Below are positions 5,062 through 33,091 of a stretch of 36,862 nucleotides of DNA, piece by piece. Numbering within the stretch: the stretch's first letter is position 1; each line of letters opens with the position of its first letter. Origin of the DNA: Wickerhamiella versatilis. Its lineage: Eukaryota. A model generated the notes under the pieces. It had not been told where the DNA came from, made no database searches, and saw nothing but the letters and a program-made list of their open reading frames with translations. A program made the translations under genes and the position numbers. The DNA is taken from positions 1-36,862 of the forward strand of contig JAQOWU010000005.1 in assembly GCA_030867685.1 (NCBI GenBank). The letters are read 5' to 3'.

Positions 5062-5107
5062 GTGGGCTATCTTGCATTCTTCAACCAGTCTCAGTTAGTG
5101 GAGTTGG
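5062..5107 (+). repeat. 41-nt dispersed repeat, full copy
   Basis: GTGGGCTATCTTGCATTcTtCAACCAGTCTCAGtTAGTGgAGTtGG; ~50 nt from the curA-like stop. Confidence 0.9.
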
Positions 5108-5155
5108 TCGGACTTTAGTACGGCAAGTGAAAAACAAAACAAATACATCCAATAC

Positions 5156-6175: not shown

Positions 6176-6210
6176 GGTCGAACTGATCATTAATACAAGC
6201 CCTCTTATGG

Positions 6211-6236
6211 AGTGGACTACCTTGCATTGTCTAACC
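6211..6236 (+). repeat. 41-nt dispersed repeat, partial copy
   Basis: AGTGGaCTAcCTTGCATTGTCtAACC, 35 nt upstream of the curA-like ATG. Confidence 0.65.
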
Positions 6237-6916: not shown

Positions 6917-6989
6917 GGAAAATGCAAGATAGCCCACTATAATACGTTTTGCATTGACCAACCAGTCTCAGGTAGTGAAGTGGGCCATC
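6917..6989. repeat. Two divergent copies of the 41-nt repeat (6917-6938 minus; 6949-6989 plus, one full circularly permuted unit)
   Basis: Reverse complement AGTGGGCTATCTTGCATTtTCC, then TTGCATTGaCCAACCAGTCTCAGGTAGTGAAGTGGGCcATC (exactly 41 nt). Confidence 0.9.
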
Positions 6990-7052
6990 ATCACATCATT
7001 TGTAATACCTCTGTCATTTTAAATCCCCTCGTATCCAACATATCGGCCATAG

Positions 7053-7943: not shown

Positions 7944-8304
7944 TTGATTGCCAAAGTGCAACATCATTAGCGATCAGAAAGCTCAAGTTGAAAACTACAA
8001 GTTCTTCTCGTCTCAAGAGGAGTTTAAGAATGAGTAACAATGCGTGATAAGTTATTATGTAGATAGTCGGATACATTTTGCACTGAGATTTCGATTAGAA
8101 ACAGGTTGGATAGTATTTGGCTAGCATATTCTACGGCACAACTGTGATGAACAAAACAGGTTAAAGTTAGAAAGACAAGAATACTCATTTCTGTTATGTT
8201 TCAACTATATACAGTGACATTACTGAAGATAACATAGCTAGCACATGAAAATTCAGTCTACAACAAGTATCTGGCATATGGTGTTGGTATTTTGGCACCC
8301 ACAT

Positions 8305-9393: not shown

Positions 9394-9755
9394 ACAAGGT
9401 TAGAAGGTCTATCGACGAGGAGGGTAAGGGGAGCTATAACCCGGTAAAACACTCCAATCACGTGACTACACGTTGCTTTTGACTAAATCAAGTCAACTAT
9501 GTCTACTGTAAAGTTGGTGTTTGTAGTTAGATATATATATTTACGTATGTATATAAATAATTGTTGGAAGTATCCATAATATCTACAGAGCGTACTTGCA
9601 TAATCAAATGTGTTCGCTGATCAGCAGAGCTATTCTAAGGAGCTACCAAATCAGTTATCCGTAATGAGCTCTCATACCCAGGCTCCTGAGTTCGATGCTG
9701 GAAATTCGGCACAACTTAAGACTATATTCCAACAAGTTCTGGCCACTTCTGACTT

Positions 9756-10019
9756 ACCACGAGTTTCTGATAATAGAATGCTCGCCACTTTGAATTCGAA
9801 AAAATAATCAGTCGCCCAGATTGCTTTACTCATAATAGGGTATTCAGTACCCAATATTTAAATTTATTCGTTATCATGTCTCTAATTAGTACACAGTGAG
9901 AAACTGATTAGCTACTGCTGGTATAGAAGCAAGGTACCTGACCCATATTTATAACGTCAAATTACCATTCTTAAGATTGATTCTAAAACGGTATGTCATT
10001 AAGCTACATAGATAAGCTA
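9756..10019 (-). pseudogene. Duplicated 3' fragment of the membrane-protein gene at 31867-32870
   Basis: 264-nt ungapped direct repeat of 31749-32012 (~28 mismatches by hand count, ~89%). Translation in the homologous frame has two premature TAA codons. Confidence 0.75.
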
Positions 10020-10530
10020 CGGAAACAATTCGTACAAAAATCGAGCAAGAATTTAGTAAAACGAACCGAAATAGGGTCGGCGATATGGTATAATTTGAGT
10101 CTTATAGTGGAAAATAAAAATGCACCTTATCACTATGACGATTCAATATATATGCATACAAAAAGCCAGACATGGAATAAAATTCATTTATTGCTCTGAT
10201 AGTTTGCCACAGTGGGCTATCTTGCATCAAGTAAAGCAAAACGTAATGATCGATCATCTTGCTTAATCCATGCGCAAATGCTTGTAACTACAATTGATAA
10301 GCTCTCACGCATTGCTCAAATCCTTCCAGACAAAGAAATGAGCTGTGGTATAAATGAATAACTAAGAGACAAATTGCCCGTTGATTAATCATAAACCTAA
10401 GATGTGGTAATCTTGCATATATTGCATATCCCGTGCAAAACTAAAAGGTACGCAGCTGGCCTCTGACTGGGAGTTATCTAAACTTGTACACTTAATTAAT
10501 ATACCTATTTACTCCCAGGAAATCTCACAC

Positions 10531-10565
10531 TGTTCAACCAGTCTCAGGTAGTGAAGTGGGCTATC
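10531..10565 (+). repeat. 41-nt dispersed repeat, permuted copy spanning the unit junction
   Basis: TGTtCAACCAGTCTCAGGTAGTGAA|GTGGGCTATC; another partial copy AGTGGGCTATCTTGCAT at 10211-10227. Confidence 0.88.
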
Positions 10566-10713
10566 CAACATCATTAACTTGGTCATATGCAGTAATGTTG
10601 CATATACACTGCCTCGTTACACCTTAAAAAAGTTGGTTGGACAGTCTTTCATATTACTCACCCTATTCTTGTATTGTGCCTGTCGAAATTTCTTTGTGCA
10701 ATGGATCCAGTAG

Positions 10714-11340
10714 ACTTTCACTGTCAAGGAATGGTTTAAATCACATGACCCCGGTACTTTCACCTATAGATACCGCGACGACGACCTGGAAGATGCTCTT
10801 GAACTTGCTGTGGATTACAAACGTATCGACCAGGAGATTGTTGAGCAAATAATCACTCAGCTTGGTAATGATGCTGATGATTGGTGGTATGTTGTGGACG
10901 ACTTTTCTGACATACGTGTATGTAACCTAAATAATGACACTGAGGAAGCATGTGTATTTATTCGGACCCTTGTGAAAAATGCGATGGAAAAACTGAAGCT
11001 CTACTCGAATCTACCATTATTGAAACCGTGTAATGCCTCCTCCTACAAGGCCATGGTTGAATCCTTGGCCGAGCGTGCTCCTTTGGTGGACGAGCGAATG
11101 AGGGACGTTAGCCACGGAAAGCTCCCCGATATCTTCACCCTCTTTGAATTTTCTTCTCAACTAGAAGATATAGGAAAGATTACCCGACATCGTACTAACT
11201 TTGACTGGGGATACCTTTGTGGGGAATCGCTCGATCATTATTACCTTACTCATGCACTTCATCGTAGTGGAAATTTTCTCAAACCAGGTGCCCCACGTAG
11301 GAAATCTGTTGATCTCTGTGTCTGGTGGTGGGAAGATTGA
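10714..11340 (+). CDS. Hypothetical protein, probably frameshifted at the 5' end
   Basis: Frame open from 10714 (TFTVKEWFKSHDPG...LELAVDYKRID...) to 11340 with protein-like composition. The nearest upstream ATG (10701) is one base out of frame. Confidence 0.5.
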   Translation, partial: TFTVKEWFKSHDPGTFTYRYRDDDLEDALELAVDYKRIDQEIVEQIITQLGNDADDWWYVVDDFSDIRVCNLNNDTEEACVFIRTLVKNAMEKLKLYSNLPLLKPCNASSYKAMVESLAERAPLVDERMRDVSHGKLPDIFTLFEFSSQLEDIGKITRHRTNFDWGYLCGESLDHYYLTHALHRSGNFLKPGAPRRKSVDLCVWWWED

Positions 11341-11794
11341 TAGTACTGGTGGTGGTCAATTAAGAACTCAGCAACTCCTGTTATCGTTCAATATGAAAAT
11401 TGACGGTTACCAACCACTCCACAATCGAGCTCTGTACCAAATACTAGAGCCAAAAATCTTAGGTTTATCATGTAGTGCCAAGAACCCTGTAGTGTGGTTA
11501 TTGTGAATTGTTATAATTTCATAATCGGGTTACAATCTTGTAACCTACCCAATGTCTTCTCATGACTTGCTATTGCCAATGCTGCGACACTGGTAAAGCA
11601 AGATTGATTTATCTGCTTTTCACCGATTCATCCTGAGACTAGTTAGTATCTTGGTGCCTGGGATAGTGTGTGTTCTTGGATACATAGTGCAACCTAAACG
11701 ATACCTGAGAAGTACGTGATTCAATGTTGCCGAACCTTCGCAATTAGCCAACTTGGCAGGTTTCGGCTGGCGCTCGGTCTAGAATCAGCGAGGC

Positions 11795-14721: not shown

Positions 14722-15198
14722 TCAAATCTCTTCACTTATATCCTGCGGGACAACAGACACAGCGGTTACGCAACAAGTCACTTGATATATATCCACAGTT
14801 TGTCCAATACTTTCCAAATCAAACCGAAGTCCACATGCTGCATTTGCTCCTGTTGCCTTTACGCCTGTGATCATTCGATCGATCGCTTCTTCACGTGCCA
14901 TTTGAATTAGACTAGTAAGCCTGTAGAGTTCTTCGCTGACTTTTCCCCTGATTCCTCCCTTACTTGCCTCTCTTTCTTCTCCACCACTTTTTAACATGTT
15001 GAAATTCATACCTCTTCTCGCCGTCGCGCCAAATACAACACCATGATTCTTGACGATTTCGAACCCAGGAACATCCTCTGTAGTCGATAGAACTATGCCC
15101 CCATCTTGTTCCGGGTCTGCTATACTATATGGAGGTGGGGGTTCGGGCTGACCTATGTCCTGCTTGGGCTTTTCTGATTTATCAAGCATGGTAGTCAC
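14722..15198 (-). CDS. YbjQ/UPF0145 family protein with N-terminal PPxY motif
   Basis: VLSTTEDVPGFEIVKNHGVVFG...AREEAIDRM...GANAACGLRFD...TAVSV matches the YbjQ pattern; PPPPY near the N-terminus. Confidence 0.85.
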   Translation of the reverse strand: MTTMLDKSEKPKQDIGQPEPPPPYSIADPEQDGGIVLSTTEDVPGFEIVKNHGVVFGATARRGMNFNMLKSGGEEREASKGGIRGKVSEELYRLTSLIQMAREEAIDRMITGVKATGANAACGLRFDLESIGQTVDIYQVTCCVTAVSVVPQDISEEI

Positions 15199-15370: not shown

Positions 15371-15823
15371 TTACTTACGTCCCTTGGGGACAACGGATAC
15401 AGCGGTTGCACAACAACACACCTGAGATATATTAGTATGTCCAATGTATTCTGAATCAAACCGAATCCCACATGCTGCATTTGCACCAGTTGCCTTAACA
15501 CCCGCGATCATTCGCTCCACTGCTTCTTCAAATGTGACTTGAACTAGACTCGTCTGCATGTAAAGTTCTGAGCTTGTTAAGCCCCTCTTTCCTTCCTCTC
15601 CATCTTTTTTTCCTTCGTCTGTTAACATCATTGAAAAATTCTTACCTCTTCTCACCGTCGTGCCAAATACAACACCATGGTTCTTGTCGATCTTAAACCC
15701 GGGGATCTCTCCTGTAGTTGATAGAATTATATCCCCGTCTTGATTCGAACTCATTATACTATATGGAGGTGGAAGCACTACCTGATCTAACTCCTTCTGA
15801 AGCTTTCTGAATTTATCAAACAT
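15371..15823 (-). CDS. YbjQ/UPF0145 family protein, tandem paralog
   Basis: ILSTTGEIPGFKIDKNHGVVFG...GVKATGANAACGIRFD...TAVSV; LPPPY motif; clear DNA similarity to 14722-15198. Confidence 0.85.
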   Translation of the reverse strand: MFDKFRKLQKELDQVVLPPPYSIMSSNQDGDIILSTTGEIPGFKIDKNHGVVFGTTVRRGKNFSMMLTDEGKKDGEEGKRGLTSSELYMQTSLVQVTFEEAVERMIAGVKATGANAACGIRFDSEYIGHTNISQVCCCATAVSVVPKGRK

Positions 15824-19299: not shown

Positions 19300-19489
19300 T
19301 GTCCAATCCAACCAAGCCAGTCTCAGATAGTGATGACGTAGTTATAGCCTATAGTGTGTGACCTTATCAGGTCGTGAAGTGGGCTGGCTATCTTGCATGA
19401 TGTGGGGTAAACGTAGCAGCGCCTTGCAACATACGCCACGGTTGTGATCAACGAAGTGGGCTATTGCATTGTCCAACCACTCACAGGTA
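19300..19489 (+). repeat. Three clustered copies of the 41-nt repeat with internal stutters (19300-19333, 19367-19398, 19453-19489)
   Basis: TGTCCAA-tccaaccaag-CCAGTCTCAGaTAGTGA; TCAGGTcGTGAAGTGGGCT-GGCT-ATCTTGCAT; GAAGTGGGCTA--TTGCATTGTCCAACCAcTCaCAGGTA. Confidence 0.85.
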
Positions 19490-19618
19490 ATATTCAGTCT
19501 TATATCTCTTCTATTTAATAGGTGCTACTATACATTACGGTAGAGCCACTATAAACTAGCCTTCACCTGTGACCTCGTCATAAGAAGGAGGTAAGTCTGC
19601 TATTGGCAGCTCTTCTCG

Positions 19619-19975: not shown

Positions 19976-20282
19976 CGCTGGGTGATGTTTGTTAGAAATC
20001 TATCAATCGAAGTTGAATAACAAAGATGTCGGTTCCTTGAATATCTTGACATGGGTCAAATCCTATCAAGATTCGCTTATTTGCCCTAATACCGTGAGTA
20101 TACGCAGGTAGTACAAGTATGACTGTGATATCAAGCACCTTTTTATTACAAATATACTAGGACGAATCTTTAACATTTATTGCTAATTTAAGATACACAG
20201 TACAAAGATACGAGTCAACTTACTCATGATGATCTATATTCAACTATAAATGAAGTAGCAAAAAGGTTACTTTTTTACTTAC

Positions 20283-20309
20283 CTTGCATTTTCCAACCAG
20301 CCTTAGGTA
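20283..20309 (+). repeat. 41-nt dispersed repeat, partial copy
   Basis: CTTGCATTtTCCAACCAGcCTtAGGTA, ~45 nt before ATG 20354. Confidence 0.7.
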
Positions 20310-20353
20310 TTCATCTTTATTACTAATAAAATACCAACTATTTCTTCCCAGAC

Positions 20354-21229
20354 ATGAGAACGCCTAGGGTGGACAATTTCGATATCTTCAAGGAATTCTC
20401 GAACGTGGCTAGTATCTTTTCATCCTGCTATATTATTTTGGCCCCGAATAACTCTCATGAAGGCGAAGAATATAAAACTAAGCTTCTTTTCGTTTTTGCT
20501 ATCTTCACTCTGGTATTATGTGTCGCTGAAGTGATTCTTAGATGGTTCCTGAGTGACAAAATCTTCCAAGATCATCGTCTGGTGAATACAAAAAAAGGCT
20601 TGCTATCAATAATCCTGCTGGTCAGAGGAATCTTATCTCTTTTTTATTTAATGTTCACTACCTTCCTGTATAGCAGCCTGCTTTACTGGATCCTTTTTAC
20701 CCTCGTTGCTGGTAATATGGTTTTAACAGCCATAGGTGCTGCATTTAAAGAAGTCGAAAGTGTAAGGGCTAAACGAAAGAATGAGGTAAGGAGGATTTCT
20801 CTGACAATTATTGACTATTTATGCCTAACCTTGCATGGGCTCGTTTTACTGCTATCTGTAACATTGCTTGCAAGGTCTACCGCTTTGCCTTCTGATGAAC
20901 GAACCGATGACTTATATGGGGTTGCAGTCGTTATAACCCTATGCTTTATTGCGATTATGGCAATAGACATACTTTTGTATATCTATGGAATTGACGAAGA
21001 TAATTTGTATACCAATGCTCTATCGTACGCTGCCACTTTTTCCTTTTCTATGATCAGTGAGGTAGCTGCTCTTCCGCTGGCTATAATATATGCTGATACC
21101 ACTTATTGGCTAATATCAGTACTCATTGCTTTGATTTTCATGTTAATGGTTTGCTCACCTATACTCGAACGAGTGAAAGAAGTGAGAGCCGAGAAAGGCA
21201 GAGAATGTGAGGATAAACGAAAGTTGTAG
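20354..21229 (+). CDS. Hypothetical multi-pass membrane protein
   Basis: 291 aa ATG ORF with ~7-8 hydrophobic segments; no family recognised. Confidence 0.65.
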   Translation: MRTPRVDNFDIFKEFSNVASIFSSCYIILAPNNSHEGEEYKTKLLFVFAIFTLVLCVAEVILRWFLSDKIFQDHRLVNTKKGLLSIILLVRGILSLFYLMFTTFLYSSLLYWILFTLVAGNMVLTAIGAAFKEVESVRAKRKNEVRRISLTIIDYLCLTLHGLVLLLSVTLLARSTALPSDERTDDLYGVAVVITLCFIAIMAIDILLYIYGIDEDNLYTNALSYAATFSFSMISEVAALPLAIIYADTTYWLISVLIALIFMLMVCSPILERVKEVRAEKGRECEDKRKL

Positions 21230-21455
21230 GAGAGCGCAACATCTGTGGTATAATCGTCTTGCAGGTAGGCAGTAAACTCGTGATAACCGACAATACATAT
21301 ATAATGTTCCATCAAAACACAGTGTGCTATTCTTCGTTGCCTCAAACTTATCACAGTAATTTATCACCATATTTATCGATTTCAAACACTCTTACAGCGG
21401 TAGCTTCTGATCTGGCGTTGATCGATTAGCTAATTGGGCTCAGCAATACCTTGTT

Positions 21456-23549
21456 ATGCCAAAGTCCTACAGTGGCTGCCTAAGATGCCGCCGTCAGAAA
21501 ATTAAATGTGACCAGGGAACACCTAGTTGCGAGAATTGCCTAAGTTCCAGGACTACTTGTGAGTATGCCTCCAATCTACGATGGTCTAAGGACGATCGAA
21601 ATGTCCTTCGACGGCCAGTTGAGAAAGCACGGTTTCCTCCAAACATGTGTTTTGATCCTAGTAGAGTGCATGAAATCTTAGACACTTTGGATAAAGTACA
21701 TCAAACATCTGATGCATGTATGGGACCATTCACTGTGTTCGAGGTACCAGAGCTCTTGCCATCAGCTCAATACCTTTCCAGTGACCAAAATATAGACAAG
21801 GAGCAATCGCAGAGCACTCATCCTCCCACACAGTTTTCTGAGGTACGCGGTTGTGCAGAGCATGTTCAGGAGTACAGTTCGCCAACCAATATACCTATTC
21901 CGCTATCTGAAGAAGCACCGAGCATTTTTGATAGGTTTAGTGAAACGCCACCAAATACTGGGAGCAATCAGCCGACCACAGAGTTGGACCACGCTGAGTT
22001 GTTACGAGAAGACTTGCTGAATTGCTTCTGTGAAGACTTCACTTCGAATACACCAGAACAAGATGCTGAAGTGCTCTTATTTGAACGGACGGTAGAGTGT
22101 AACTGGCCAATTAGCCAGGCGGCAAAAAACATGAGTTTTTCTATAATGAGGTTGACTACGATGGCCCAAGGACTGCTGGTATACACGACTAGAATCTTTA
22201 CACCTGACAACTCCGTGAGAGCAAGCTCTGGAAACCTTTGGTGTACTTTTTTCACACCTCCCGCCTTGGCTGCAGTTGGTGAAATCCTTGCAACCGGTTC
22301 TACTACCAGTGCAAAGTATGCTATACTTTGCGCAGTTCTTTCGTGCGGAGCTCATCGTGCAAGGCAGAACTTCAATTCAGATAGCCTTGAGGCAACTTTT
22401 TGCATTTCTCTTGGAAAAAGATTATATGATGGTAGCAGGTATTGGATCGGTAGATGGTTGAAAGATCAACCGCTGGAAAAATACAAAGATGGGCTGGTTG
22501 CGCTCATAACTTTGATGATGAATCAATTTATCACAGAAGATGAGATCAGAAGGGAAAAAACAATGCGCGTATTACAGAGAGTCGTGAATAAAAGACTGAA
22601 AGAGAGACCAGAGGTAAGCGCCAAGGTGTCTATTTTGCACAAGGCTGCTGCCATGCCAATATTACTATCGTGGGTAGCAACTGGTAGACTAAAAAACTAC
22701 GATAATGACCCTATCGATAGCTCAAGATGGATAGATTCTGCATATGAGGATACCTTTCCGACATATGAGGAAACTTTCTCCAGTATTTCCAGCAGGCTTG
22801 TTCGTCTTGATTCAAGACGAGCAATGCTGATTCACTTACAGGAACCGAACCAAATTCAAAGCTATATTGAGCAATACATATGCGATATACCCCGCGAGGC
22901 ATATGACAAAGGTTCGAACAAAAGCCAGTTTAGTTATGGATTACCACCGTCTATTATATTTCTATTTAAGGAAGCTGTGATGATTTCAGAGCTGTTTGAG
23001 AAAGGGGAGTGTAATCCAACTTCCGAATTTATCTGGAGATCCACGTTATTAGAGGCAGCCCTAGCTAACTGGGAGCGCGCCTATGAGCCGCCTATAATCA
23101 CAATTCCAGTCGGCGAAAACTCTCCAGCAGCAATGGAGGCTAGGTGGTCTGCAATTTCTAGTCATAATACTTTGGCATTTTATGATGGAGTAGTCCTATT
23201 TCATTATTGCATAAATAAAGGCGTTGATCACCGTTTACTTCAAAATACGGTGAGGCGCGTAATTGACAACCTTGAGAGCATAACATGTCTTAACATGGAG
23301 CTTAGAGAACGCATCACGGTTCCAATCCTTTTTCCAGGGTTTGTAGGTGCATGTTTGGCAATGGAGCCGGATTCAGCTCTATGCTCACGGTATGACTCGT
23401 GGCTAAATGACATGGATACTTTCAGCATCTATCCTCGTAGAAATCTTTTACGTGTGGTAACAGAATTGCGGCGGCGACGAATTCGTGGTGAACCATGTAA
23501 GTGGAGTACGATAGCCCGTGAACAACGTATAACACCAAATATGTTTTAA
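21456..23549 (+). CDS. Zn(II)2Cys6 transcription factor, Arg81-like
   Basis: KSYSGCLRCRRQKIKCDQGTPSCENC......C followed by LRWSK, as in Arg81 (KTFTGCWTCR...LRWSK); GPFTVF; long C-terminal fungal TF domain. Confidence 0.9.
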   Translation: MPKSYSGCLRCRRQKIKCDQGTPSCENCLSSRTTCEYASNLRWSKDDRNVLRRPVEKARFPPNMCFDPSRVHEILDTLDKVHQTSDACMGPFTVFEVPELLPSAQYLSSDQNIDKEQSQSTHPPTQFSEVRGCAEHVQEYSSPTNIPIPLSEEAPSIFDRFSETPPNTGSNQPTTELDHAELLREDLLNCFCEDFTSNTPEQDAEVLLFERTVECNWPISQAAKNMSFSIMRLTTMAQGLLVYTTRIFTPDNSVRASSGNLWCTFFTPPALAAVGEILATGSTTSAKYAILCAVLSCGAHRARQNFNSDSLEATFCISLGKRLYDGSRYWIGRWLKDQPLEKYKDGLVALITLMMNQFITEDEIRREKTMRVLQRVVNKRLKERPEVSAKVSILHKAAAMPILLSWVATGRLKNYDNDPIDSSRWIDSAYEDTFPTYEETFSSISSRLVRLDSRRAMLIHLQEPNQIQSYIEQYICDIPREAYDKGSNKSQFSYGLPPSIIFLFKEAVMISELFEKGECNPTSEFIWRSTLLEAALANWERAYEPPIITIPVGENSPAAMEARWSAISSHNTLAFYDGVVLFHYCINKGVDHRLLQNTVRRVIDNLESITCLNMELRERITVPILFPGFVGACLAMEPDSALCSRYDSWLNDMDTFSIYPRRNLLRVVTELRRRRIRGEPCKWSTIAREQRITPNMF

Positions 23550-23811
23550 GGACTCTAATTCATAAATATATACCTTTTTATTGTTCTTTATATTCGGTAG
23601 AAGCTGGGGTTTGATCTCATATGTCTTGTTTTATCCTCATTACCGTTTTATGATACCTTTTTTGGTAGGAAAACCCGATTTATGTAATCAAATGACTTTC
23701 CGCACCATTGGCGGAATTTTGTGCATGCGAACGCTAAGTCACAGTCTTTTAAAAATTTGAAATAAATATGACAACAATAACATAAAGCTATTGCATTTAA
23801 AATTATAGTGG

Positions 23812-25293
23812 CTAGAGAGAATATCGAAACGAATGGATCTCACGGTCAGTAAGATCTTCTGCGGCAGGACTATCCTCGTCAATTCCCATACTTGATTCAG
23901 TACGATCACGGCGTTTGTTTTCCCACAGGTTAAGGAAAAGTAACACGAGAAAGAGGAAGAATACAATGCATGAACATGCGGCCATGGTCGTCTTCGCTGT
24001 TGGATAGCCACTGGGCTCCTCGCTTCCCTTAAATGCCTGCGGTCCAACCAAACAACCAACGGCAAATGATAAGCTAACCATTGCTGATACAGTGGACTTT
24101 TTCGTGCGTCCACGAACATCACTCTGGACAAGGCTTAGAACAATGCAAAATACCTGCGGCTCATAAAAGGCAAACGCATAGTAACCAAAAAGCTGCATTC
24201 CCGTGTTTCCCCAGGCCAGGAAGCATAAACATAATATAAATTGCCCGCAAATACCAAGACCCCAGAAGGCAAGGCGGTATCTGACAAGAAGGCTGGCCGC
24301 AAAAATTCCTACCAATATCTGAAACACAAGCTCTACACCACCAGCGGGCATATCCATAAGAATGCTTTGCCCATCGGAAAACCCCATACCAGACAGAAGG
24401 ATGACGCTGAAATTTGTGACACCCCCACTGGGTATGTTTGTTAATATTACAGCAATGATATAAATCCATGAACGGATATCTAAAAACGCCTCCTTGATTT
24501 GAGACGCTTTGACTGGTTCATAATTCTCCTGGCATGGAATACGGTCGGCACAGGCTTCTTTTTCGGCTTCGTTTAGAAAGAACGCTTCCCGTGGTGTATT
24601 AGGTATGATGCACCCGAAAATGGCCCCAATGAGGATGGTAATAGCTCCTAAAATAACCATCTGGAGGCGCCAGGATGCCATTGGTAGACTTTTGTTTTTG
24701 TACAAGCCATAAGATAGACCATCTAGCATGATTTCAAATAACCCTACGAATGAGTACCACACAGACGTACGGGAATTGTGCTGGCTTCGGGGAAACCACT
24801 GAGTGTTGAGAACAACAAATGAAGGAATCACAGAACCCTCGAGAAATCCTTGAATCACCCGTAAGGCGATAAAAGAGGCATAATTTTTTGCCGCGCCAAG
24901 GCAGCATGTTATGACGCCCCAAAGTACTATAATAATGCCCAGGGTTTTACCAATTGGCACGCGCTGCATAAGATAGTTACCACCAAATATCTGCCAGCCC
25001 AAGTACCCAAAGTAGAAAGATGATCCTACAAAGCTGTATTGTTGACTATTCGGATCCATATTCAAGTCCTCACGGATACCCATAAGAGAAGCATTAGATG
25101 TTGAGGTTCGATCCCCAAATTGGATACCATAAACCACTGCCATAGAAAGGCATACGATAAAGTCAGCTTTGAGCTGCAAACTACGTTTCGCTCGGAGCAT
25201 GACTGGCGAGATCTCCTGCACGTCACTCACAATAACGCTGTGCGCTTCAGAGGTTGCGGGGTCTTTTTCGGACTTACACGAACTGAGTTGCAT
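23812..25293 (-). CDS. MFS anion:cation symporter, Dal5/allantoate permease family
   Basis: KADF...QFGDR...ASLMGIREDL...QYSFVGSSFYFGYL, QRVPIGK, LRVIQGFLEG, SWRL, QIKEAFLD, NIPSGGVTNF, GRTKK, VGPQAF, WENKRRD, DLTDRE..FRYSL. Start placed at the first ATG (25293). Confidence 0.92.
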   Translation of the reverse strand: MQLSSCKSEKDPATSEAHSVIVSDVQEISPVMLRAKRSLQLKADFIVCLSMAVVYGIQFGDRTSTSNASLMGIREDLNMDPNSQQYSFVGSSFYFGYLGWQIFGGNYLMQRVPIGKTLGIIIVLWGVITCCLGAAKNYASFIALRVIQGFLEGSVIPSFVVLNTQWFPRSQHNSRTSVWYSFVGLFEIMLDGLSYGLYKNKSLPMASWRLQMVILGAITILIGAIFGCIIPNTPREAFFLNEAEKEACADRIPCQENYEPVKASQIKEAFLDIRSWIYIIAVILTNIPSGGVTNFSVILLSGMGFSDGQSILMDMPAGGVELVFQILVGIFAASLLVRYRLAFWGLGICGQFILCLCFLAWGNTGMQLFGYYAFAFYEPQVFCIVLSLVQSDVRGRTKKSTVSAMVSLSFAVGCLVGPQAFKGSEEPSGYPTAKTTMAACSCIVFFLFLVLLFLNLWENKRRDRTESSMGIDEDSPAAEDLTDREIHSFRYSL

Positions 25294-25400
25294 CGCTAAA
25301 ACAGAAATGTGGGATAGTGCTTTCTGAATCACTCCTCTTTTTGTGGGTACAGATAGCGTGTTATTTTAGAATAATTCGGGTAAGGGTTCTAAAAGTCCGC

Positions 25401-25449
25401 GACAAGCGGGTTCTCCTACCCCATTTGGATTTCCAAACAGATAAGATAA
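25401..25449. promoter_or_regulatory. Divergent promoter motifs: GACAA(g/at)CGGGTTCT plus overlapping GATAAG/GATAA
   Basis: gacaagcgggttct at 25401-25414 matches gacaaatcgggttct at 28003-28017; GATAAGATAA at 25440-25449. Confidence 0.4.
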
Positions 25450-25526
25450 ATGTTTGTCATCTAATCATGTTGATTAGGCCATAGTGCGGTTATATATGGG
25501 TTGTGCTCATATTCATTGACTGTCAA

Positions 25527-26210
25527 ATGACATTTTCTCTCGTTGCACACGATCCCAGTACAGGACAGCTGGCTGTGGCTGTAAGTTCGTCATCACCTTC
25601 TGTAGGTTCCAGGTGTGCATTCGCCCGTGGTAAAGTAGGCGCTGTAACTACTCAAAAGCTCACCTTGCCGGATATCGGATCCCAGGTACTTGATGCTCTT
25701 GAGCAAGGGATGATGGCTCAAGAAGCCTTGGAAAAAGTGATAAAGCAAACACCATACGCAGATAAACGCCAAGTAACCGTAATTGATTCGAAAGGAAACA
25801 AAGCAATTTGGTTAGGTGAGGAAAACGTTTCAGGATCTGCTCAATCTAAAAATGCGGCTTCAGCAGGAAATTTCTTGGCACATGTTGGTGTCCCCAAAAC
25901 CATGGTTGATGCCTTTGAACAAAGTACCGGGGAGACGCTTGGGGACCGTATTCTCGACGGGTTACAGGCTGGTTTCGATGACGGTGGTGAGGGAAACCCT
26001 ATTCGATCGGCAGCCTTATTAGTGGTGGAAGAAGATCGCTTTCCACTCACAGATATTCGTGTTGATTGGGCCCTGAATCCTATCGAGGAAGTCAGGAAAA
26101 TCTATCATATATGGAAACCACAAATGTATGAATATCGCGTCCGTGCCGTCGATCCCTATAATGCACCTAAATTTTATGCTCCTAAAGAAGAGGAAGGCCT
26201 TTGGGATTAG
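25527..26210 (+). CDS. DUF1028 family protein (Ntn-hydrolase-like), bacterial type
   Basis: MTFSLVAHDPSTGQLAVAVSSSSPSVGSRC...VGAVTTQ...RQVTVID...AGN.L...GGE.NPIRSAALLVV...DIRVDW...P. Start at ATG 25527 exposes Thr2. Confidence 0.88.
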   Translation: MTFSLVAHDPSTGQLAVAVSSSSPSVGSRCAFARGKVGAVTTQKLTLPDIGSQVLDALEQGMMAQEALEKVIKQTPYADKRQVTVIDSKGNKAIWLGEENVSGSAQSKNAASAGNFLAHVGVPKTMVDAFEQSTGETLGDRILDGLQAGFDDGGEGNPIRSAALLVVEEDRFPLTDIRVDWALNPIEEVRKIYHIWKPQMYEYRVRAVDPYNAPKFYAPKEEEGLWD

Positions 26211-26486
26211 AAATCTATTTATCACAAGATAACCCTAGATATTTGGTAACCCAACGGCAACTGGCCCCATGAATTTATGAGGCTTTCTTAATTAAAAATT
26301 CTTGTACCCATATCACCGTTAAAAATTAAAGGATTTATAGACTTCATTATTGTATAATATTTAGCATTCATGTCTGTATACAAGTTCGAGGAAAACTGAA
26401 AAATAGGATGAGTTCACCACTGGAAGGTCAAGTTCAGTAAAAAAACTATGAACACTAGTGAAAGAAATAATAAGAGGCATATAATT

Positions 26487-27875
26487 CTAACATACGAGGT
26501 TTTCCAGTTCATTGAGCTGATACAGAACAGCAGCTTTTGCGGTACCACCAATCGCTGCCCTTTTTTCCACACTGTTATGGAAGTCAAACACATCCATAAC
26601 ATCTTCGTCAAATCTTGGATCAATTGATTTATATTGCTCGACTGATAGCTTGTCAATTCCACCAATATTGTGCTTCTCAGCAAAAGCAACTGCTTCGCCC
26701 GAAATGTGGTGCGTTTCACGGAATGGCACTCCCTTGCGTACTAGATAGTCGGCCAGATCTGTGGCCAGCATATCCATCGACAAGGCTTGAAACATACGAG
26801 TTTCATTAATTTTTAGAGTTGAGAGAATGCCTTTTGAAATTTGTAAAGAATTCTGAACCGTGGCCAGACTATCGAATAGTGGCTCCTTATCCTCACGCAA
26901 ATCCTTGTTGTACGTAGAGGGCATACCTTTACATACAACCATGAAACCAACGAGATGCCCTATAATTGTACCTGACTTCCCACGTATCAATTCAAGGGAG
27001 TCTGGATTCTTCTTCTGGGGCATCAACGAAGAGCCAGTTGAATACGCATCTGCGGCTTGTACAAACCCAAACTCAGCTGTAGAGTAAATTATGAGATCTT
27101 CACTCATTTTAGCCAAATGCGAGGCGACCATAGAGCACCAAAATAGTGTTTCAATCACAAAATCTCGATCGGAGACAGCCGCCAGTGAATTCCCGACTAC
27201 ACCCTCAAAGCCAAGTTCACGAGCCATGAATTCTCGATCGACAGCATAGGGATTCCCAGCTAGAGCACCGGTGCCGAGAGGACATTGATTAATGCGAACT
27301 ATCAACTGATCAAGTCGTTTAAAATCTTCGCCCAAAAATGTGGCTAGCATGCTAAGCCAGTGGGACCAGCGGATTGGTTGTGCTCGCTGCATGTGTGTAT
27401 AGCCGGGCATAAGCACATCAATCTCTGCACGAGCACGCTGAGCAATGACTAGGATTAACTCAACTAGAAATTGGCGAATTATCCTTAACTTGTCAATCGT
27501 GTGGAGCCGTAAATCCGTCACAACTTGATCATTGCGAGAACGTCCAGTGTGAACTTTTCCAGCAATATTTCGCCCAATAATTTCACCTAATCGTCTCTCG
27601 TTCGCAGTATGTATATCTTCATCACCAGGCCTCGTGATAAAGTTTCCCTGAGACCACTCATTCTCAAGCTCTTTAAGTCCAGAACTAATTTCTGACAGCT
27701 CATGATTGTTTAATATTCCAGCTTTCTGTAAAGCCTGTGTATATACTTGAGTCCCCTTGATATCGGCAGCATACATTTGCTTGCCGGTAGACAATGATTC
27801 ATTAAACGTCTCCATCAACGGGTCCATTTCTTCAGAAAAGCGACCTCCCCACAACTTGTTACCGGAAGTGTTCAT
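26487..27875 (-). CDS. ARG4: Argininosuccinate lyase (fungal Arg4-type), possibly a neofunctionalised paralog
   Basis: [85 protein letters not shown]. Confidence 0.95.
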
Positions 27876-28127
27876 GATTCTTACTCTTTCTTCGTCTTAG
27901 GATAAAAGTGAAACCCAAATATCTACTGCTATATATGATACTGTGATTATATAACCTGTCCACAATCATTAAAACCCTGATTCAACATATCAGAAACAAG
28001 ATGACAAATCGGGTTCTTTTTCCTAATTAATTTAGGGAAAGGGCAGGGGCCCCGACAAAGCCAACCACTGATAATGCGAAATATGTACTAGTTGCTGTAC
28101 ACTTTTGTTCGACTGGGTGTAATCGTG

Positions 28128-29495
28128 ATGGCTGTAAAAAGTCGGAAACTTGATAAACTGGTCTCATTTGTCGAGGAGCTTAAGTTCGAGAATATCCCTA
28201 CGAATGTTGTTGAACGAGCCAAGCGTCATTTTCTGGATGCGATAGGTGCAGCACTTGCAGGTACCACTAGTGATGCATTCCTCAAGGTTTTAAGACAGTC
28301 ATGCTTGACGGAACCAAGCTTTGATTGTCTAGTTTGGGGAACAAAATATCACTTTTCGTCGACTGTAGCTGCCTTTGCTAACGGTGTAGCTGCCCATGCT
28401 TTAGAGCTCGATGATACTGGAGGATGCGATCATAGTGGTGCAGTAGTAGTACCCTCAATACTCTCCTTGTTACCTGTACTTGGTAGACCCGTCAGCGGGC
28501 GCGAGCTTCTCACTGCCATGATTGTGGGTTATGAGGTTGGTAGGAGGGTTTTAGAAGCCTGTGGGGGATATGCAGCACATAATAATGATGGCTGGCACTC
28601 TACTGCCACTTGCGGTGTATTCGGGGCCTCTGCAGCCTGCGCAAAGCTAATGGGGCTGTCAGGTGAGAAATTAAAGTCAGCGATAACCTTATCAAGTAGT
28701 GCTTGTTCTGGACTATGGGCTTTCGTGCACGATTCTTCCCAAAGCAAGAAACTGCACGCAGGCTTGGCGTCAAAGGGCGGAATTGGGGCGGCATTACTTG
28801 CTCGTGAAGGCATGGAAGGACCATCTTATTTGTTTGATGATATATGGGGTGGCTTTTTAAAAACATATGCTAAAGACCATGCTGAATCGGAAGCCTTGTA
28901 TGAGGGCTTGGGTATGATCTGGAAACTAATGAGATGTTCCATCAAGCCTTATGCCTCTTGCCGAGGGACCCATAGCAGTATTGATGCAGTTATAGAGCTT
29001 ATGGAAGACTACGGTATCTCAGTTGATGAAATAAAGGCTGTAAAAATACATCTGAGTCCTTTTCTATATAATATGTGCGGGACTCGAGACCTGAGCAGTC
29101 TTGCTAGTGCACAGATGAGTCTTCCGTATGCGCTTACGGCTATAATTACATTAGGAGATGCCGGATTAAACGCATACCAACCAGAATATTTCAATTCAGC
29201 ATCTACAAAAGATTTTATGGACCGTATTGTGCTCAAAGTAGATGACAACTGCGATCCATCCAGAGAGCCTGATGTTACTTTAGATTCTAGTGATGGCCGT
29301 TCATTCACCACTCGCGTTGATATCGCTTTGGGGAATCCTAGGAATCCAATGAGTGATAAAATATTGTTATCCAAATTTGAAGAGTTGGCTGGGCGTGTGT
29401 TGGCTCCTGAAAAAGTTGCTCAAACAATTCTTATGTGCCTCTCCCTTGAGAAGTTGGATGATGGAAAAGCTTTACTGGACCTATTGCAAGCTTAA
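28128..29495 (+). CDS. MmgE/PrpD family protein (IDS-epimerase/YxeQ-like rather than canonical methylcitrate dehydratase), bacterial type
   Basis: AAFANGVAAHALELDD, H.GAVVVP, GYEVG.R, GWHSTATCGVFGA, KKLHAG, IKPYASCRGTHSSID, AQMSLPY, GNPRNPMS...KF. Start placed at ATG 28128. Confidence 0.92.
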   Translation: MAVKSRKLDKLVSFVEELKFENIPTNVVERAKRHFLDAIGAALAGTTSDAFLKVLRQSCLTEPSFDCLVWGTKYHFSSTVAAFANGVAAHALELDDTGGCDHSGAVVVPSILSLLPVLGRPVSGRELLTAMIVGYEVGRRVLEACGGYAAHNNDGWHSTATCGVFGASAACAKLMGLSGEKLKSAITLSSSACSGLWAFVHDSSQSKKLHAGLASKGGIGAALLAREGMEGPSYLFDDIWGGFLKTYAKDHAESEALYEGLGMIWKLMRCSIKPYASCRGTHSSIDAVIELMEDYGISVDEIKAVKIHLSPFLYNMCGTRDLSSLASAQMSLPYALTAIITLGDAGLNAYQPEYFNSASTKDFMDRIVLKVDDNCDPSREPDVTLDSSDGRSFTTRVDIALGNPRNPMSDKILLSKFEELAGRVLAPEKVAQTILMCLSLEKLDDGKALLDLLQA

Positions 29496-30059
29496 ATACT
29501 AACCTAGAATAACTTTGATCCTACTCGGTTGTATTTGTAATAATCTGGGACATATTGTCCTTCACAGTTAACATGCTCAAGAAATGGTTTCCTCATAAAA
29601 CATCTTATCTGCCCGATTGCTCTATAATCTTGCAGTTTGGGGCTGCTATCTTCTGCATTAGTCAACGCAGTTGCGTTATCTTGTAAATGGGTGAGACTGT
29701 AGAGGAGGAAAAGAAGACAGCTCCCTATCATATAACCTTGGGTTTCACCAGTTATATGGAGCCCACGATTGATTAGGCTATCTCACAGAAGACCCAATAT
29801 TTCACTTTTCATCTCAGATATGCGGCCAATTGTTTTTTATTCTAACCAGAACTATTGAACCGATCACTTTGTTCCTAAAGCTATTAGTGCTAGTTAAGTT
29901 GGAATATTTCGGGATGATTATACTGATGCACTGGGTGAAGAAAATTATTATGGGCATGTCGTACAGAAGCGTTCCCTTATGGATACTTTCTTTTTTGTTT
30001 TTTTCTATTTCGTTTCTTTTTGATTCATTAAAGTATTCCTGCTAAGAATTAAATTACTA

Positions 30060-30096
30060 TGGGCTATCTTGCATTGTCCAATCAGTCTCAGATAGT
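30060..30096 (+). repeat. 41-nt dispersed repeat, near-full copy
   Basis: TGGGCTATCTTGCATTGTCCAAtCAGTCTCAGaTAGT, 20 nt before ATG 30117. Confidence 0.9.
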
Positions 30097-30116
30097 AAGA
30101 TGATTAGTCATCTGTT

Positions 30117-31637
30117 ATGCTTTGGGTGAGCATGGCTCTAACTGCGTTAGGGCTCGCTCAAAAAGGTTCCATTGAAGATGTTCCTGGGTATTGGGAAACA
30201 TGTAGTACTGTACATTCGCGAAATGACTGGTATGGTTATCCGCAGGTCAATATTGATGTGTCTATTAACAGTAATGAACAGGAATTCGTATTTGTCAATT
30301 CCTTTCCCGTAAAAAATTCCCATGATGGCTTTATGCTATGGCAGTTTACTGTTGTTTTATATGCGTATGAAGACAAGGATCTGCTTGGTATTTCTGCTCC
30401 TGATAGTCGTGCGGAGTACGTCTGCACAAACCATACGATCAAATCCGGAGCATGCACTATTGATGACTATGGAAACATTTTATTAGAGAAAGATGCACGC
30501 TCTAAACTTCCTATTCGCTATAAAAGTGTAAATTTTGATTTGCCTGCAAGCATCAATGATCATCGTTATATCACCTTTGATATTTCGAACACGTCACTTT
30601 ACTGTGTGGGAATATTTCCCGTCCAATATTGTACACACTGGGATTCCGCAAAGTGTATTCACATAAATTCGGTGCAGGAAGAAGATTCGCCTAGTTATGT
30701 TGTTAGAAAATTGGATGCAGATGTGAGTTTTTTCAGCTCTGATGGATACTTAACCGCATCTAAAGGACTCTTAGTATTACATTTTGTTGCTGCAAGTATT
30801 TGCCTGCTTTCTGTTGCCCTTTGGTCATGGAATTCCTATCTTAACCGACATAATTTAGTGAAAATTCAGCATCAAGTTCTTATCATTGGAATCCTTATGA
30901 CCTGTGAACAGCTCATCACTGCATTTCACTACTTATCGGTAAGTATGAGAAGAGAGTTTCCAGTATTTCTTTGGTTTGTAGCTGTATTTCATGCCATTCG
31001 TATTGTTTATATGCAGTTTTTTCTGTTACTCTTGTGTGTAGGGAACTCTGTTGTATGGGAAACATGGAGTTGGACTTCACTATTCTATTGGATACCATTA
31101 GGCGCTGGGACCTTCTTCACTTTGTTTGTATACTCCCTGCAAGCATATAACTATCGCCATGATGGTATGGACGATAAACACTTTAACGTGATAGTAATTT
31201 CTGTGCTTAACGGATTGCTACTAATTAATTTTGCCTGGGTGATTTCACGCTTGTCGGCTGCAAAAAAATATTTCTTGGAAAAAAACCAGATTCTCAAAAG
31301 CAGTGTATACGAGAAAATTCGAAACTGTACCGGCGTTTATGCCCTTGTGATTGTTGCCTTTACAATCCAACTTTTGGTCTATAAGCTTTCCAGCAGATAC
31401 AGTGGCTTTTTAATTGATTACTGTAATTATAGCTGGTTTTTTTTAGATGGATTTCCACTAGCGGCATATTTATTCCTCTACTTGGTTGTCTCCTACCAGT
31501 TGCGCCCTTCTGCTTATGAACAGTTACCCCAAGATGAAGACTGGCTGAACAATGCCGGAGCAATAGAAATGGAAACGTTCCTAGTGCCTGAGTTCGATAA
31601 TTTTGGTAGGATCCGAGGGGCATCACCGAAACCTTAA
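30117..31637 (+). CDS. PTM1-like / GOST (Lung_7-TM_R) seven-transmembrane protein
   Basis: Signal peptide; lumenal domain with YEDKDLLG, YVC....IKSGAC...DYG and LYCV; GYL.A; IQH; FLLLLCVGNSVV; WFFLDGFP...Y...LRPS. Confidence 0.82.
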   Translation: MLWVSMALTALGLAQKGSIEDVPGYWETCSTVHSRNDWYGYPQVNIDVSINSNEQEFVFVNSFPVKNSHDGFMLWQFTVVLYAYEDKDLLGISAPDSRAEYVCTNHTIKSGACTIDDYGNILLEKDARSKLPIRYKSVNFDLPASINDHRYITFDISNTSLYCVGIFPVQYCTHWDSAKCIHINSVQEEDSPSYVVRKLDADVSFFSSDGYLTASKGLLVLHFVAASICLLSVALWSWNSYLNRHNLVKIQHQVLIIGILMTCEQLITAFHYLSVSMRREFPVFLWFVAVFHAIRIVYMQFFLLLLCVGNSVVWETWSWTSLFYWIPLGAGTFFTLFVYSLQAYNYRHDGMDDKHFNVIVISVLNGLLLINFAWVISRLSAAKKYFLEKNQILKSSVYEKIRNCTGVYALVIVAFTIQLLVYKLSSRYSGFLIDYCNYSWFFLDGFPLAAYLFLYLVVSYQLRPSAYEQLPQDEDWLNNAGAIEMETFLVPEFDNFGRIRGASPKP

Positions 31638-31866
31638 ATTATAATGTTAGTATTGCACGAACGGGTGGCTATCTCTACTTTAACCTTTTCCCTCTTCCCA
31701 TGTTCTGAAAATTCCCCGATCTTGTTCTACTAGGCTATTTTGTGTCCGACCACGAGTCTCTGATAATAGAATGCTCGCCACTTTGAATTCGAAAAAATAG
31801 TCAGTCGCCCAGATTGCTCCACTCATAATAGGGTATCCAATACCCAATATATAAATTTATTCGCTA

Positions 31867-32870
31867 TTATGTCTTTAATAAGTAGACAGTGAGAAATTGA
31901 TTAGCTATTGCTGGTATAGAAGTGACGTATCTCACCCGTATTTTTAATATCAAATTACCATTCGTAAGATTGATTCTAAAGCGGTATATCGTTAAGCTAC
32001 AAAGATAAGCTAAGAGGTTTGATAAAAATCCAAGCACACAGTAGCTAAATTCCAAAAAATAGATCCCATGCCCAATATATTGAATTCAGCTTTACGAACC
32101 TGGAGAGCAGAACACAAGCAAGCCAACGCATTTACGAAAAGGATTACCGCAATAAGAATCCGATAAGGCCGTCTGAGACTAAAAATCCCGACTAACATCG
32201 GAAATGCCAACCTTGCGCTTATCAATAAAGACAGCGTAATTATCTGTAATGGACGAAGTACATTCAAAAACCTAATAATTCCATTAAAAGCCTCAAGCTG
32301 TACAGATAAACCAATTTGCATATCAAGCTTGAATGACATGGAAGGAATTAAAAAAACGAAACTCATCGACAGACCAAGAATTACCAGCAATAAAAGCCCA
32401 GGGGAGCTTATCCACTTGACAACCAAGTTTTTACCACACATGACTATACCAATAAGAAACGCAAAAATTATCGGGAGCATCCCAAAAGATCCTATAACAC
32501 ATGGAAAAGCCAAAAGATCCGACGTGGGGTTCTTTGAAACAAAATCCTTTAGGTCTTCGCTTCCATGGATCCCTCTGTTTAGGTACGCCTTCTGGTACAA
32601 GTATGCCAACATTAGAATGAACGAGTTGCATACCCATATACCCGCCGCTCGATGCATAGGGAAATAATTACATGGATGGTACATATGAAATACCAAAAGT
32701 GGTGAGACTGACTCAAGTATTATGAGCCACTTGAACCTCATTGCTGTGTTTGCAGCTTCAGGTATGACTGCAGAACTGAGTCCAGCAAGAATAAGGAAAA
32801 GTAATTCGATATAATCTGTCTTTGTTGCCGTCAAGTAAACCTCTTCTACCCCATCAGTGCTCCTACCCAT
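31867..32870 (-). pseudogene. Multi-pass membrane protein, apparently frameshifted (ORF 32010-32870 plus ORF 31867-32055)
   Basis: Hydrophobic 286-aa ORF overlaps a 62-aa hydrophobic ORF at an A6 run (32054-32059); removing one base fuses them. The 31867 frame and its double stop are conserved in the paralogous fragment at 9756-10019. Confidence 0.55.
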
Positions 32871-33049: not shown

Positions 33050-33091
33050 AGTGAAGTGACTTGCATTGTCCAACCAGTCTCAGGTAGAGAA
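33050..33091 (+). repeat. 41-nt dispersed repeat with internal deletion
   Basis: AGTGAAGTG[del]aCTTGCATTGTCCAACCAGTCTCAGGTAGaGAA; partial AAGTGGcCTATCTT at 33177-33190. Confidence 0.88.

Follow-up and report, generated by a model that had tools for sequence, protein, structure and literature searches.

The genome of the yeast Wickerhamiella versatilis contains, in a stretch of 36,862 nt of contig JAQOWU010000005.1 (assembly GCA_030867685.1; the whole stretch is hereafter called the window), a block of five genes at positions 21456–29495, which encode a Zn(2)Cys(6) transcription factor, a major facilitator superfamily (MFS) transporter, a DUF1028 protein, a homolog of argininosuccinate lyase (ASL) and an MmgE/PrpD-family protein. 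The block is a metabolic cluster of yeast in which some of the genes are xenologs. It probably degrades a compound that releases fumarate, and we consider it somewhat probable that it constitutes a mosaic eukaryotic cluster for the import and degradation of an N- or S-succinyl (1,2-dicarboxyethyl) compound. Below we describe the gene content of the block, the origins of three of its genes, the divergence of its lyase from yeast ARG4, and a proteobacterial operon that unites relatives of two of its members.

The original prediction, made from the DNA alone, had described five packed genes, four of them in two divergent pairs. A check of the open reading frames (ORFs) of the window found all five intact at exactly these coordinates, and Pfam searches agreed with the families (for the transcription factor and the transporter at the domain level). 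The intergenic gaps measure 262, 233, 276 and 252 nt, and the head-to-head pairs are MFS/DUF1028 and ASL/MmgE. The block is physically real, as its linkage holds in contigs of public sequencing runs. According to sampled words, 20 runs from 10 studies (food, fermentation and sediment metagenomes) contain the window wholly or partly, 12 of them at least half of it. In run X8, which is a possible source of the window, a single 21,253-nt contig covers positions 20000–31000 with 1 difference. Run X10 carries no flag as a source; its contigs join the transcription factor to the MFS gene, DUF1028 to the ASL gene and the ASL gene to MmgE/PrpD (3 of the 4 junctions) with 0 differences.

The pairing of the lyase with the MmgE/PrpD protein, which had been proposed from known bacterial systems, has a direct counterpart in Proteobacteria. 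Relatives of the yeast MmgE/PrpD protein are encoded by 469 stretches in 185,579 species genomes, and the 80 loci with the closest relatives (L001–L080, 47–62% identity) were examined. In 77 of these 80 loci an ASL homolog lies ~4.5 kb upstream of MmgE/PrpD on the same strand, and the three loci without it (L015, L023 and L058) end at contig ends. The order of the operon is fixed: a divergent LysR gene faces the genes for the ASL homolog, an ATP-binding cassette (ABC) permease, an ATPase, a family-3 binding protein and two members of the polysaccharide deacetylase family, with MmgE/PrpD in the last position. The ASL homolog scores 520 bits against TIGR00838. The best matches of the permease, the ATPase and the binding protein, all sub-threshold, are cystine and basic amino-acid systems, while the best NCBIfam match of the two deacetylase-family proteins is the allantoinase PuuE domain. 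Since a second, better-matching argH was found elsewhere in all five operon genomes tested, the ASL of the operon is a dedicated paralog, and the pairing of lyase and MmgE/PrpD is therefore a conserved functional association and not only an analogy, set in an operon with its own importer, amidohydrolases and regulator. The operon is present in Pseudomonas, Erwinia, Pantoea, Burkholderia, Caballeronia, Rahnella, Sodalis and Halomonadaceae; directly downstream of it in Erwinia, on the opposite strand, is an arginase-family gene. Our literature searches found no published description of an operon of the LysR/ASL/ABC/PuuE-like/MmgE-PrpD type, and no article that pairs MmgE with argininosuccinate lyase, or PrpD with both argininosuccinate lyase and polysaccharide deacetylase.

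When the proteins of this operon were searched against the window, they matched only the ASL gene (37% identity) and the MmgE/PrpD gene (51%), hence the window lacks ABC and deacetylase-family genes. Descent of the block as a whole set from the operon was considered and rejected, as only MmgE/PrpD is orthologous.

The closest relatives of the yeast MmgE/PrpD protein are those from Halotalea and Salinicola (60–63% identity), followed by hundreds of proteins from Pseudomonas, Erwinia and Pantoea (~50% identity). In a phylogenetic tree of 83 rows (IQ-TREE) the yeast protein falls inside a clade of 8 rows with 99% support in the SH-like approximate likelihood-ratio test (SH-aLRT), in which those of the 7 other rows that carry names belong to Halomonadaceae. 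This nesting agrees with the label 'bacterial-type' given to the enzyme in the original prediction, and on phylogenetic grounds the gene was acquired from a Halomonadaceae-like gammaproteobacterium. The terminal branch of the yeast protein is long (0.83), and the GC content at third codon positions (0.37) is the same as in the neighboring yeast genes, so that the transfer is not recent. Among the proteins of known structure, cis-aconitate decarboxylases (CADs) are the nearest (140 bits), followed by iminodisuccinate (IDS) epimerase (125 bits), both over the full length; they share the fold family with the yeast protein and belong to a different subfamily. The Bacillus subtilis homolog (7bra) scores 102 bits. 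Identity with 2-methylcitrate dehydratase PrpD was rejected on the basis of scores far below the cut-offs of the respective profiles (TIGR02330: 26 bits, cut-off 458; NF006943: 28 bits, cut-off 575).

Residues H90, E93, H102, Y148, H157, K207 and K273 are invariant in all 17 rows of an MmgE/PrpD alignment, and the yeast protein keeps every invariant column of that alignment. In CAD, the positions aligned with H102, H157, K207 and K273 are occupied by His, His, Lys and Lys, respectively. All characterized MmgE/PrpD enzymes act on a C4 1,4-dicarboxylate, and two of them, IDS epimerase and methylsuccinate isomerase, are C2 epimerases, according to the available part of PMC12290011. The yeast enzyme appears to keep both the set of residues that binds the C4-dicarboxylate and the acid/base pair, where the equivalence with the residues of PMC12290011 follows from numbering and from the alignment with CAD.

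The lyase has a different history. It scores 588 bits against the ASL profile TIGR00838 (cut-off 279.5), and is fungal: it is 69% identical to ARG4 of Wickerhamiella sorbophila and 64–70% identical to ~110 other fungal ASLs. The ASL paralogs of the proteobacterial operon share with it only 36–39% identity, so that the lyase did not arrive with the bacterial gene, and its derivation from the operon was rejected. In a tree of 117 fungal ASL rows (FastTree; 5 near-duplicate rows omitted) the window lyase and its two relatives P0246 (83% identity) and P0247 (80%) form a clade with 100% support and a long stem (0.28), on the Wickerhamiella/Starmerella (W/S) side of a split supported at 99%. These three cluster lyases are 66–70% identical to all yeast ARG4s, compared with 74–85% mutual identity among the ARG4s of the W/S clade and Dipodascales.

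The divergence also affects positions that other fungal ASLs preserve. Out of 253 alignment columns conserved in at least 95% of the 117 fungal ASLs, the three cluster lyases violate 22–23 (the window lyase 23), and the other sequences at most 13, with a median of 1; in the two next-highest rows gaps explain 11 of 12 and 11 of 11 violations. Seventeen columns are altered in all three cluster lyases, among them the 20s loop (Y24F, A26E, P29S, Y30T), H208N, G211A, R303T and Q327R/G. Three of the changes, L162M, R303T and Q327R/G, affect columns that do not vary among the canonical ASLs compared (12 fungal, 5 bacterial), i.e. the window lyase (L162M, R303T and Q327R) departs from housekeeping ARG4 at these universally invariant sites. 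The paralog of the bacterial operon likewise lacks Q327, together with D31, and has the same loop remodeled; the 20s loop and Q327 we take, from work on duck delta-crystallin, to line the substrate pocket. Conversely, none of the three cluster lyases has lost R114, N115, T160, H161, S282, K288, N290, Y322, K324 or K330, and alignment with duck delta-2 crystallin locates the catalytic residues of ASL in the window lyase (the Ser of the GSSxMPxKxNP loop, the His of the TH motif and the RN motif). The cluster lyase thus looks like a diverged ARG4 paralog and not like the housekeeping gene, as had been suggested before any comparison was made.

It is probable that the genome contains a second, canonical ARG4 outside the block. 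Runs X5, X8 and X10 each have one additional contig whose match is restricted to the gene's two most conserved pieces (positions 26719–26777 and 26875–26915 of the window), at ~85% identity and with the same spacing. Its depth agrees with that of the organism: 163 versus 115–176 in X5, 25.9 versus 25.3 in X8 (53.5-kb contig) and 13.1 versus 9–16 in X10. The second ASL-like gene was thus seen in 3 of 4 runs, the fourth having ~3x cover, and a distant second ASL gene in the same genome is probably the simplest account of such a match of depths across three studies. As to the proposed check for a second ARG4, ASL-like contigs exist at the depth of the organism, with the gene itself read as two short pieces. 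Taken together with the divergence of the cluster lyase, this makes it improbable that the block holds the only ARG4 of the genome. The protein P0255, which is 69% identical to the window lyase, is canonical at all ten sites checked and comes from the same two sources, is an only circumstantial candidate for the canonical ARG4 of the organism; a scan of the metagenome collection for it gave 58% as the best match. In X8, a third contig (35.7 kb, depth 21.9) is 80% identical to the region of the GSSxMPxKxNP motif (27000–27086); it may encode adenylosuccinate lyase or the ASL of another organism.

The DUF1028 protein has two yeast relatives (86% and 72% identity). Further matches do not exceed 52%, and every named one is proteobacterial, which sustains the proposal that this enzyme, too, is of bacterial type. 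Its bacterial origin is separate from that of MmgE/PrpD. In the two relatives, the contigs that carry DUF1028 measure 36,970 and 7,361 nt, and the lyases of the relatives are found on contigs of identical sizes; hence the linkage of the lyase with DUF1028 is conserved in three species. A search of the metagenome collection with patterns specific to the yeast DUF1028 trio returned 99 stretches, none of them with a relative; that collection thus contains neither the organism nor its relatives. Residues M1-T2-F3 are invariant in 32 of 32 DUF1028 sequences, and the yeast protein keeps the invariants of the family. The structural model (predicted local distance difference test, pLDDT, 92.7) has 2imh as its best structural match (template modeling score, TM, 0.80), followed by proteasome beta, HslV and Anbu. 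By the invariance of Thr2 and by these matches, the DUF1028 protein is an N-terminal nucleophile (Ntn) hydrolase of the Thr-1 type.

DUF1028 was found in 45 of 401 sampled Pseudomonadota genomes (including the unpublished G388). The neighbors in 20 bacterial loci (L111–L130) are an FMO-like flavoprotein in 12, RidA in 11, an M20 amidohydrolase in 15 and a LysR regulator in 15, and the neighborhood often adds an aldehyde dehydrogenase, an OYE-like reductase or an ABC transporter. DUF1028 therefore stems from a different context, related to nitrogen compounds. Co-occurrence of families of the block was observed for the lyase with MmgE/PrpD (77 of 80 loci) and for DUF1028 with the lyase (three species), while in the 20 bacterial loci DUF1028 is unlinked from the other two. 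A literature search on DUF1028 found nothing relevant.

Both remaining proteins are, by sequence similarity, of ascomycete type. The nearest Atlas clusters of the transporter are ascomycete MFS proteins, one of them automatically named 'Transporter PB1C11.03' (no literature was found on S. pombe SPBPB1C11.03), and in the Atlas the transcription factor has Zn2Cys6 clusters of a generic kind from ascomycetes as its neighbors. Of the labels proposed for the two proteins, both weak, 'Dal5' goes back to MFS_1 and an ascomycete transporter cluster, and 'Arg81-like' to a protein of the generic Zn2Cys6/Fungal_trans_2 type. Within its 90% cluster the transporter has a 506-aa form (P0006, on long contigs), and the 493-aa reading occurs on 2 short contigs only. 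No in-frame ATG is present 13 codons upstream of the 493-aa form in the window (23812–25332), so either the gene model or the allele differs from the 506-aa form.

The block is probably inserted or deleted as one unit. In X5, a contig at depth 54.5 links position 21267 to 29746 and skips 8478 nt. The common upstream flank has a depth of 176 and the contigs of the block 115.5–133, and since 115.5 + 54.5 = 170, these depths hint at a mixture of block-bearing and block-less forms. The joint itself is a hint only, because its shorter side is just 30 nt long and the letters between the sides are not known; it is at this strength that it favors the earlier view of the block as one unit. No repeats or target-site duplications above the level of shuffled sequences were found at the ends of the block, and the number of contigs per gene (5 for each block gene, 4–7 for the flanking genes) is uninformative on presence or absence. 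The same run contains a relative at lower depth (~23–25), with MFS and MmgE/PrpD sequences at 88–89% DNA identity (24182–25546 and 28748–29520). A contig of this relative seems to join position 25062, a 20-nt piece (25527–25546) and position 28748, which could reflect either the loss of DUF1028, of the lyase and of the 5' part of MmgE/PrpD, or an artefact of alignment, as the sides comprise only 20 nt.

The chemistry of the MmgE/PrpD family, the kept residues, the gene loci of class-I lyases and the recurrence of the same five roles in the bacterial operon suggest to us that the block serves the catabolism of a succinyl adduct. Fumarate is what class-I lyases release from compounds with an N-, O- or S-linked succinyl group, and in S-(2-succino)cysteine loci these lyases occur together with the MmgE/PrpD protein YxeQ, as described in the available part of PMC9706529. 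In the putative pathway, the MFS permease would take up the succinyl compound, the MmgE/PrpD enzyme would bind its C4-dicarboxylate moiety and invert or otherwise prepare the C2 center, and the diverged ARG4 paralog would eliminate fumarate; the DUF1028 protein, as a Thr-1 Ntn hydrolase, could split an amide before or after the release of fumarate, and the Zn2Cys6 factor would control the two bidirectional promoters. The substrate class, the order of the steps and the regulation are those we infer by analogy.

Several results weigh against such a pathway. The cluster lyase still scores as argH (588 bits, versus 605–612 bits for canonical yeast enzymes) and, judging by its full set of catalytic residues, may still cleave argininosuccinate. 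A test for substitutions shared by the yeast and the bacterial paralogs was not significant (P = 0.47), the two sets of 3 and 22 columns, out of 116 that are invariant, having 1 in common. In bacteria, MmgE/PrpD stands beside DUF1028 in none of the 20 best loci, which contain only one weak match to a class-I lyase, and among the matches listed in the protein collection no relative of the MmgE/PrpD protein exceeds 61% identity, so that its presence in the two yeast relatives is conjectural. The promoter motif that the divergent pairs were claimed to share is within chance: the longest k-mer common to both divergent promoters has 10 nt, which was equalled in 60 of 500 shuffles. The joint that skips the block was seen in one run, with its short side and missing letters, and the second ASL gene is known as two short conserved pieces on a contig that could belong to a companion organism.

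Some of these points lend themselves to the main rival explanation, which we regard as unlikely: that the lyase is the housekeeping ARG4 of a fast-evolving lineage, and that two unrelated bacterial genes became its neighbors by chance in a region rich in transfers, with no pathway in common. Beyond the argH score and the intact catalytic residues, it can draw on the different bacterial contexts from which DUF1028 and MmgE/PrpD stem, on the abundance of accessory metabolic genes in the window (SDR, MOSC, ADH, 3HCDH, a sugar transporter and two YbjQ genes), and on the hundreds of xenologs reported for W/S-clade yeasts in the accessible portion of PMC13376923. The main text of that article makes no mention of PrpD, MmgE, ARG4 or DUF1028; its supplementary lists of xenologs may include them. 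However, a housekeeping enzyme would hardly break 22–23 conserved columns where the median is 1, and it is difficult to reconcile with a depth-matched second ASL-like gene in three runs. Moreover, chance adjacency of MmgE/PrpD to a yeast ASL-type gene is unlikely, because the bacterial orthologs are linked to ASL in 77 of 80 loci; we put the odds that a xenolog settles by chance beside a homolog of its operon partner at ~1 in 1000 (our own estimate, with ~5000 genes assumed).

Or perhaps the block is a functional cluster with another type of chemistry, either biosynthetic, with the lyase running in reverse in the manner of ethylenediaminedisuccinate (EDDS) lyase and the MFS protein exporting an aminopolycarboxylate chelator, or with the MmgE/PrpD protein acting as a decarboxylase or dehydratase on an unrelated organic acid? 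This we find still less likely. It is true that CADs outrank IDS epimerase among the structural relatives (140 versus 125 bits), that class-I lyases are reversible and the lyase 2SL runs in reverse (PMC9706529, in the part available), and that the direction of transport by an MFS protein is not readable from its sequence. The bacterial counterpart, however, possesses a binding-protein-dependent ABC system, which is an importer, and Pfam reveals neither a ligase or synthetase nor any other enzyme of biosynthesis among the five genes. Finally, it is very improbable that the block is a decaying or neutral remnant, in which a redundant ARG4 duplicate hitch-hikes with leftover xenologs and serves no present function: the possible presence/absence polymorphism and the long branches that lead to the xenolog (0.83) and to the lyase clade would fit, but all five frames are intact, MmgE/PrpD keeps all invariant columns, DUF1028 keeps Thr2 and the family invariants, the catalytic residues of the lyase are kept in three species, and the X8 contig shows 1 difference in 11 kb.

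The succinyl-adduct pathway first suggested from the DNA alone has thus gained independent comparative support from the operon in 77 of 80 loci, from the divergence of the lyase and from the bacterial affinity of two enzymes, and it has lost the shared promoter motif and finds no backing in the bacterial linkage of DUF1028. A more far-reaching version, which we put forward tentatively as less probable than the pathway itself, is that a bacterial operon was rebuilt in yeast by non-orthologous replacement: MmgE/PrpD would have been kept, ARG4 duplicated and re-specialized, and an MFS transporter, a Zn2Cys6 factor and, from a second bacterial donor, an Ntn hydrolase recruited into an 8.5-kb presence/absence block, which together with the operon would represent a new pathway for natural succinyl (fumarate-adduct) compounds.

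The coordinates of all features are collected in the table. Within the divergent promoters, the 8-mer CGGGTTCT occurs mid-way in each, and these are its 2 occurrences in the 36.9-kb window; it is a post-hoc lead and not a result. A dispersed repeat of 31–46 nt has 8 copies in the window and none within the block. The lack of repeats inside the block, once taken as a sign of one unit, is real as an observation, yet with P ~0.14 (own arithmetic, from 8 copies and a block that makes up 22% of the window) it proves nothing. The element is often located immediately 5' of an ATG. At 29909–30275 the depth rises ~50–70-fold (8685 versus ~123 in X5, 1221 versus 25 in X8), and loose ends are numerous to the left and to the right; the element is therefore high-copy in the genome or in the community. 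Elsewhere in the window, a pair of 273-nt repeats (9747–10019 and 31740–32012; 88% identity, 22 kb apart) possibly represents solo long terminal repeats, and two tandem YbjQ_1 genes (putative heavy-metal-binding; 14722–15189 and 15371–15823) are duplicated together with their flanks at 71–74% DNA identity. No tRNA genes were found in the window.

Table. Features of the five-gene block, the dispersed element of the window and the related proteobacterial operon (positions refer to the window unless stated otherwise).
Feature	Position	Strand	Basis or remarks
Zn(2)Cys(6) transcription factor, 697 aa	21456–23549	+	Pfam Zn_clus 40 bits, Fungal_trans_2 40 bits
MFS transporter, 493 aa	23812–25293	-	Pfam MFS_1 109 bits
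Divergent promoter region MFS/DUF1028	25294–25526		233 nt; CGGGTTCT at 25407, GATAAG/GATAA sites, TGATTCA; not above chance
DUF1028 protein (Ntn hydrolase), 227 aa, bacterial affinity	25527–26210	+	Pfam PF06267 197 bits
Diverged fungal ASL paralog (putative), 462 aa	26487–27875	-	Lyase_1 307 bits, ASL_C2 94 bits
Divergent promoter region ASL paralog/MmgE-PrpD	27876–28127		252 nt; CGGGTTCT at 28010, GATAA sites, TGATTCA; not above chance
MmgE/PrpD-family enzyme, 455 aa	28128–29495	+	MmgE_PrpD_N 205 bits, C domain 111 bits; cut-off 32.1
Whole five-gene block with promoters; possible presence/absence unit	21268–29745		Block-skipping contig joint in X5
Dispersed intergenic element, ~31–46 nt	4595–4640, 5061–5106, 6938–6983, 10514–10559, 19464–19494, 20284–20314, 30058–30103, 33061–33091		Core TTGCATTG.CCAACCAGTCTCAGGTAGTGAA
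Conserved proteobacterial operon	~2900–11400 of each locus, L001–L080		Gene families and order

If our reading is correct, the block illustrates a eukaryotic route to the domestication of bacterial pathways, in which the logic of an operon is rebuilt around one transferred enzyme and a neofunctionalized host copy. It would also draw attention to an uncharacterized operon in many genomes of Pseudomonas, Erwinia, Pantoea, Burkholderia and Halomonadaceae, and provide functional contexts for most MmgE/PrpD proteins, for ASL paralogs and, for the first time, for DUF1028. The five-gene yeast block would make a simple experimental system for such questions.

In the degradation of iminodisuccinate by Agrobacterium tumefaciens BY6, IDS epimerase is paired with a stereoselective C-N lyase. 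The same logic is proposed here for the block: an MmgE/PrpD enzyme inverts C2 of an N-succinyl compound and feeds a fumarate-releasing lyase. The IDS system (PDB 2hp0/2hp3) differs in that its epimerase matches the yeast MmgE/PrpD protein with only 125 bits, the yeast lyase is derived from ARG4, IDS is a synthetic chelator, and no transporter, regulator or Ntn hydrolase is described there. The yxe/scm loci resemble the block in clustering an importer, the class-I fumarate lyase 2SL, the MmgE/PrpD protein YxeQ and an amide hydrolase for a succinyl adduct; the role of YxeQ in these loci is given as unknown in the part of PMC9706529 available. Unlike these loci, the five ORFs of the yeast block include, according to Pfam, neither a counterpart of the acetyltransferase YxeL (GNAT) nor of the M20 deacetylase YxeP, and 2SL is described in the same portion of that article just as 'lyase class I' and not as ASL. 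The (S)-(R)-methylsuccinate isomerase (PMC12290011, as far as the available text goes) offers a precedent for cofactor-free C2 epimerization of a succinate derivative, and the yeast protein seems to possess the carboxylate-binding His/Glu/His/His/Lys/Lys set and the acid-base Tyr/His pair of this isomerase, although the gene context of the isomerase is an itaconate cluster.

The proteobacterial operon shares with the block the MmgE/PrpD ortholog and the same roles (regulator, importer, ASL-type lyase, amidohydrolase, MmgE/PrpD), but only one gene is common by descent, and the yeast lyase is fungal. A precedent for the combination of bacterial and fungal genes exists in the same yeasts: in the W/S clade a bacterial siderophore operon became a gene cluster into which a native fungal gene was integrated (PMC11043216; bioRxiv 10.1101/399394; both in the parts available). 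There, as in the block, bacterial genes were established in a budding yeast and combined with a fungal gene; as far as these sources extend, the siderophore cluster is, however, biosynthetic and the result of a whole-operon transfer, whereas in the block one operon gene stands together with the paralog of a gene of the host and, from a second source, a xenolog. Thus, the block belongs to none of the closest known systems, and its unusual feature appears to be that a paralog of a host biosynthetic gene replaces the operon's own paralog.

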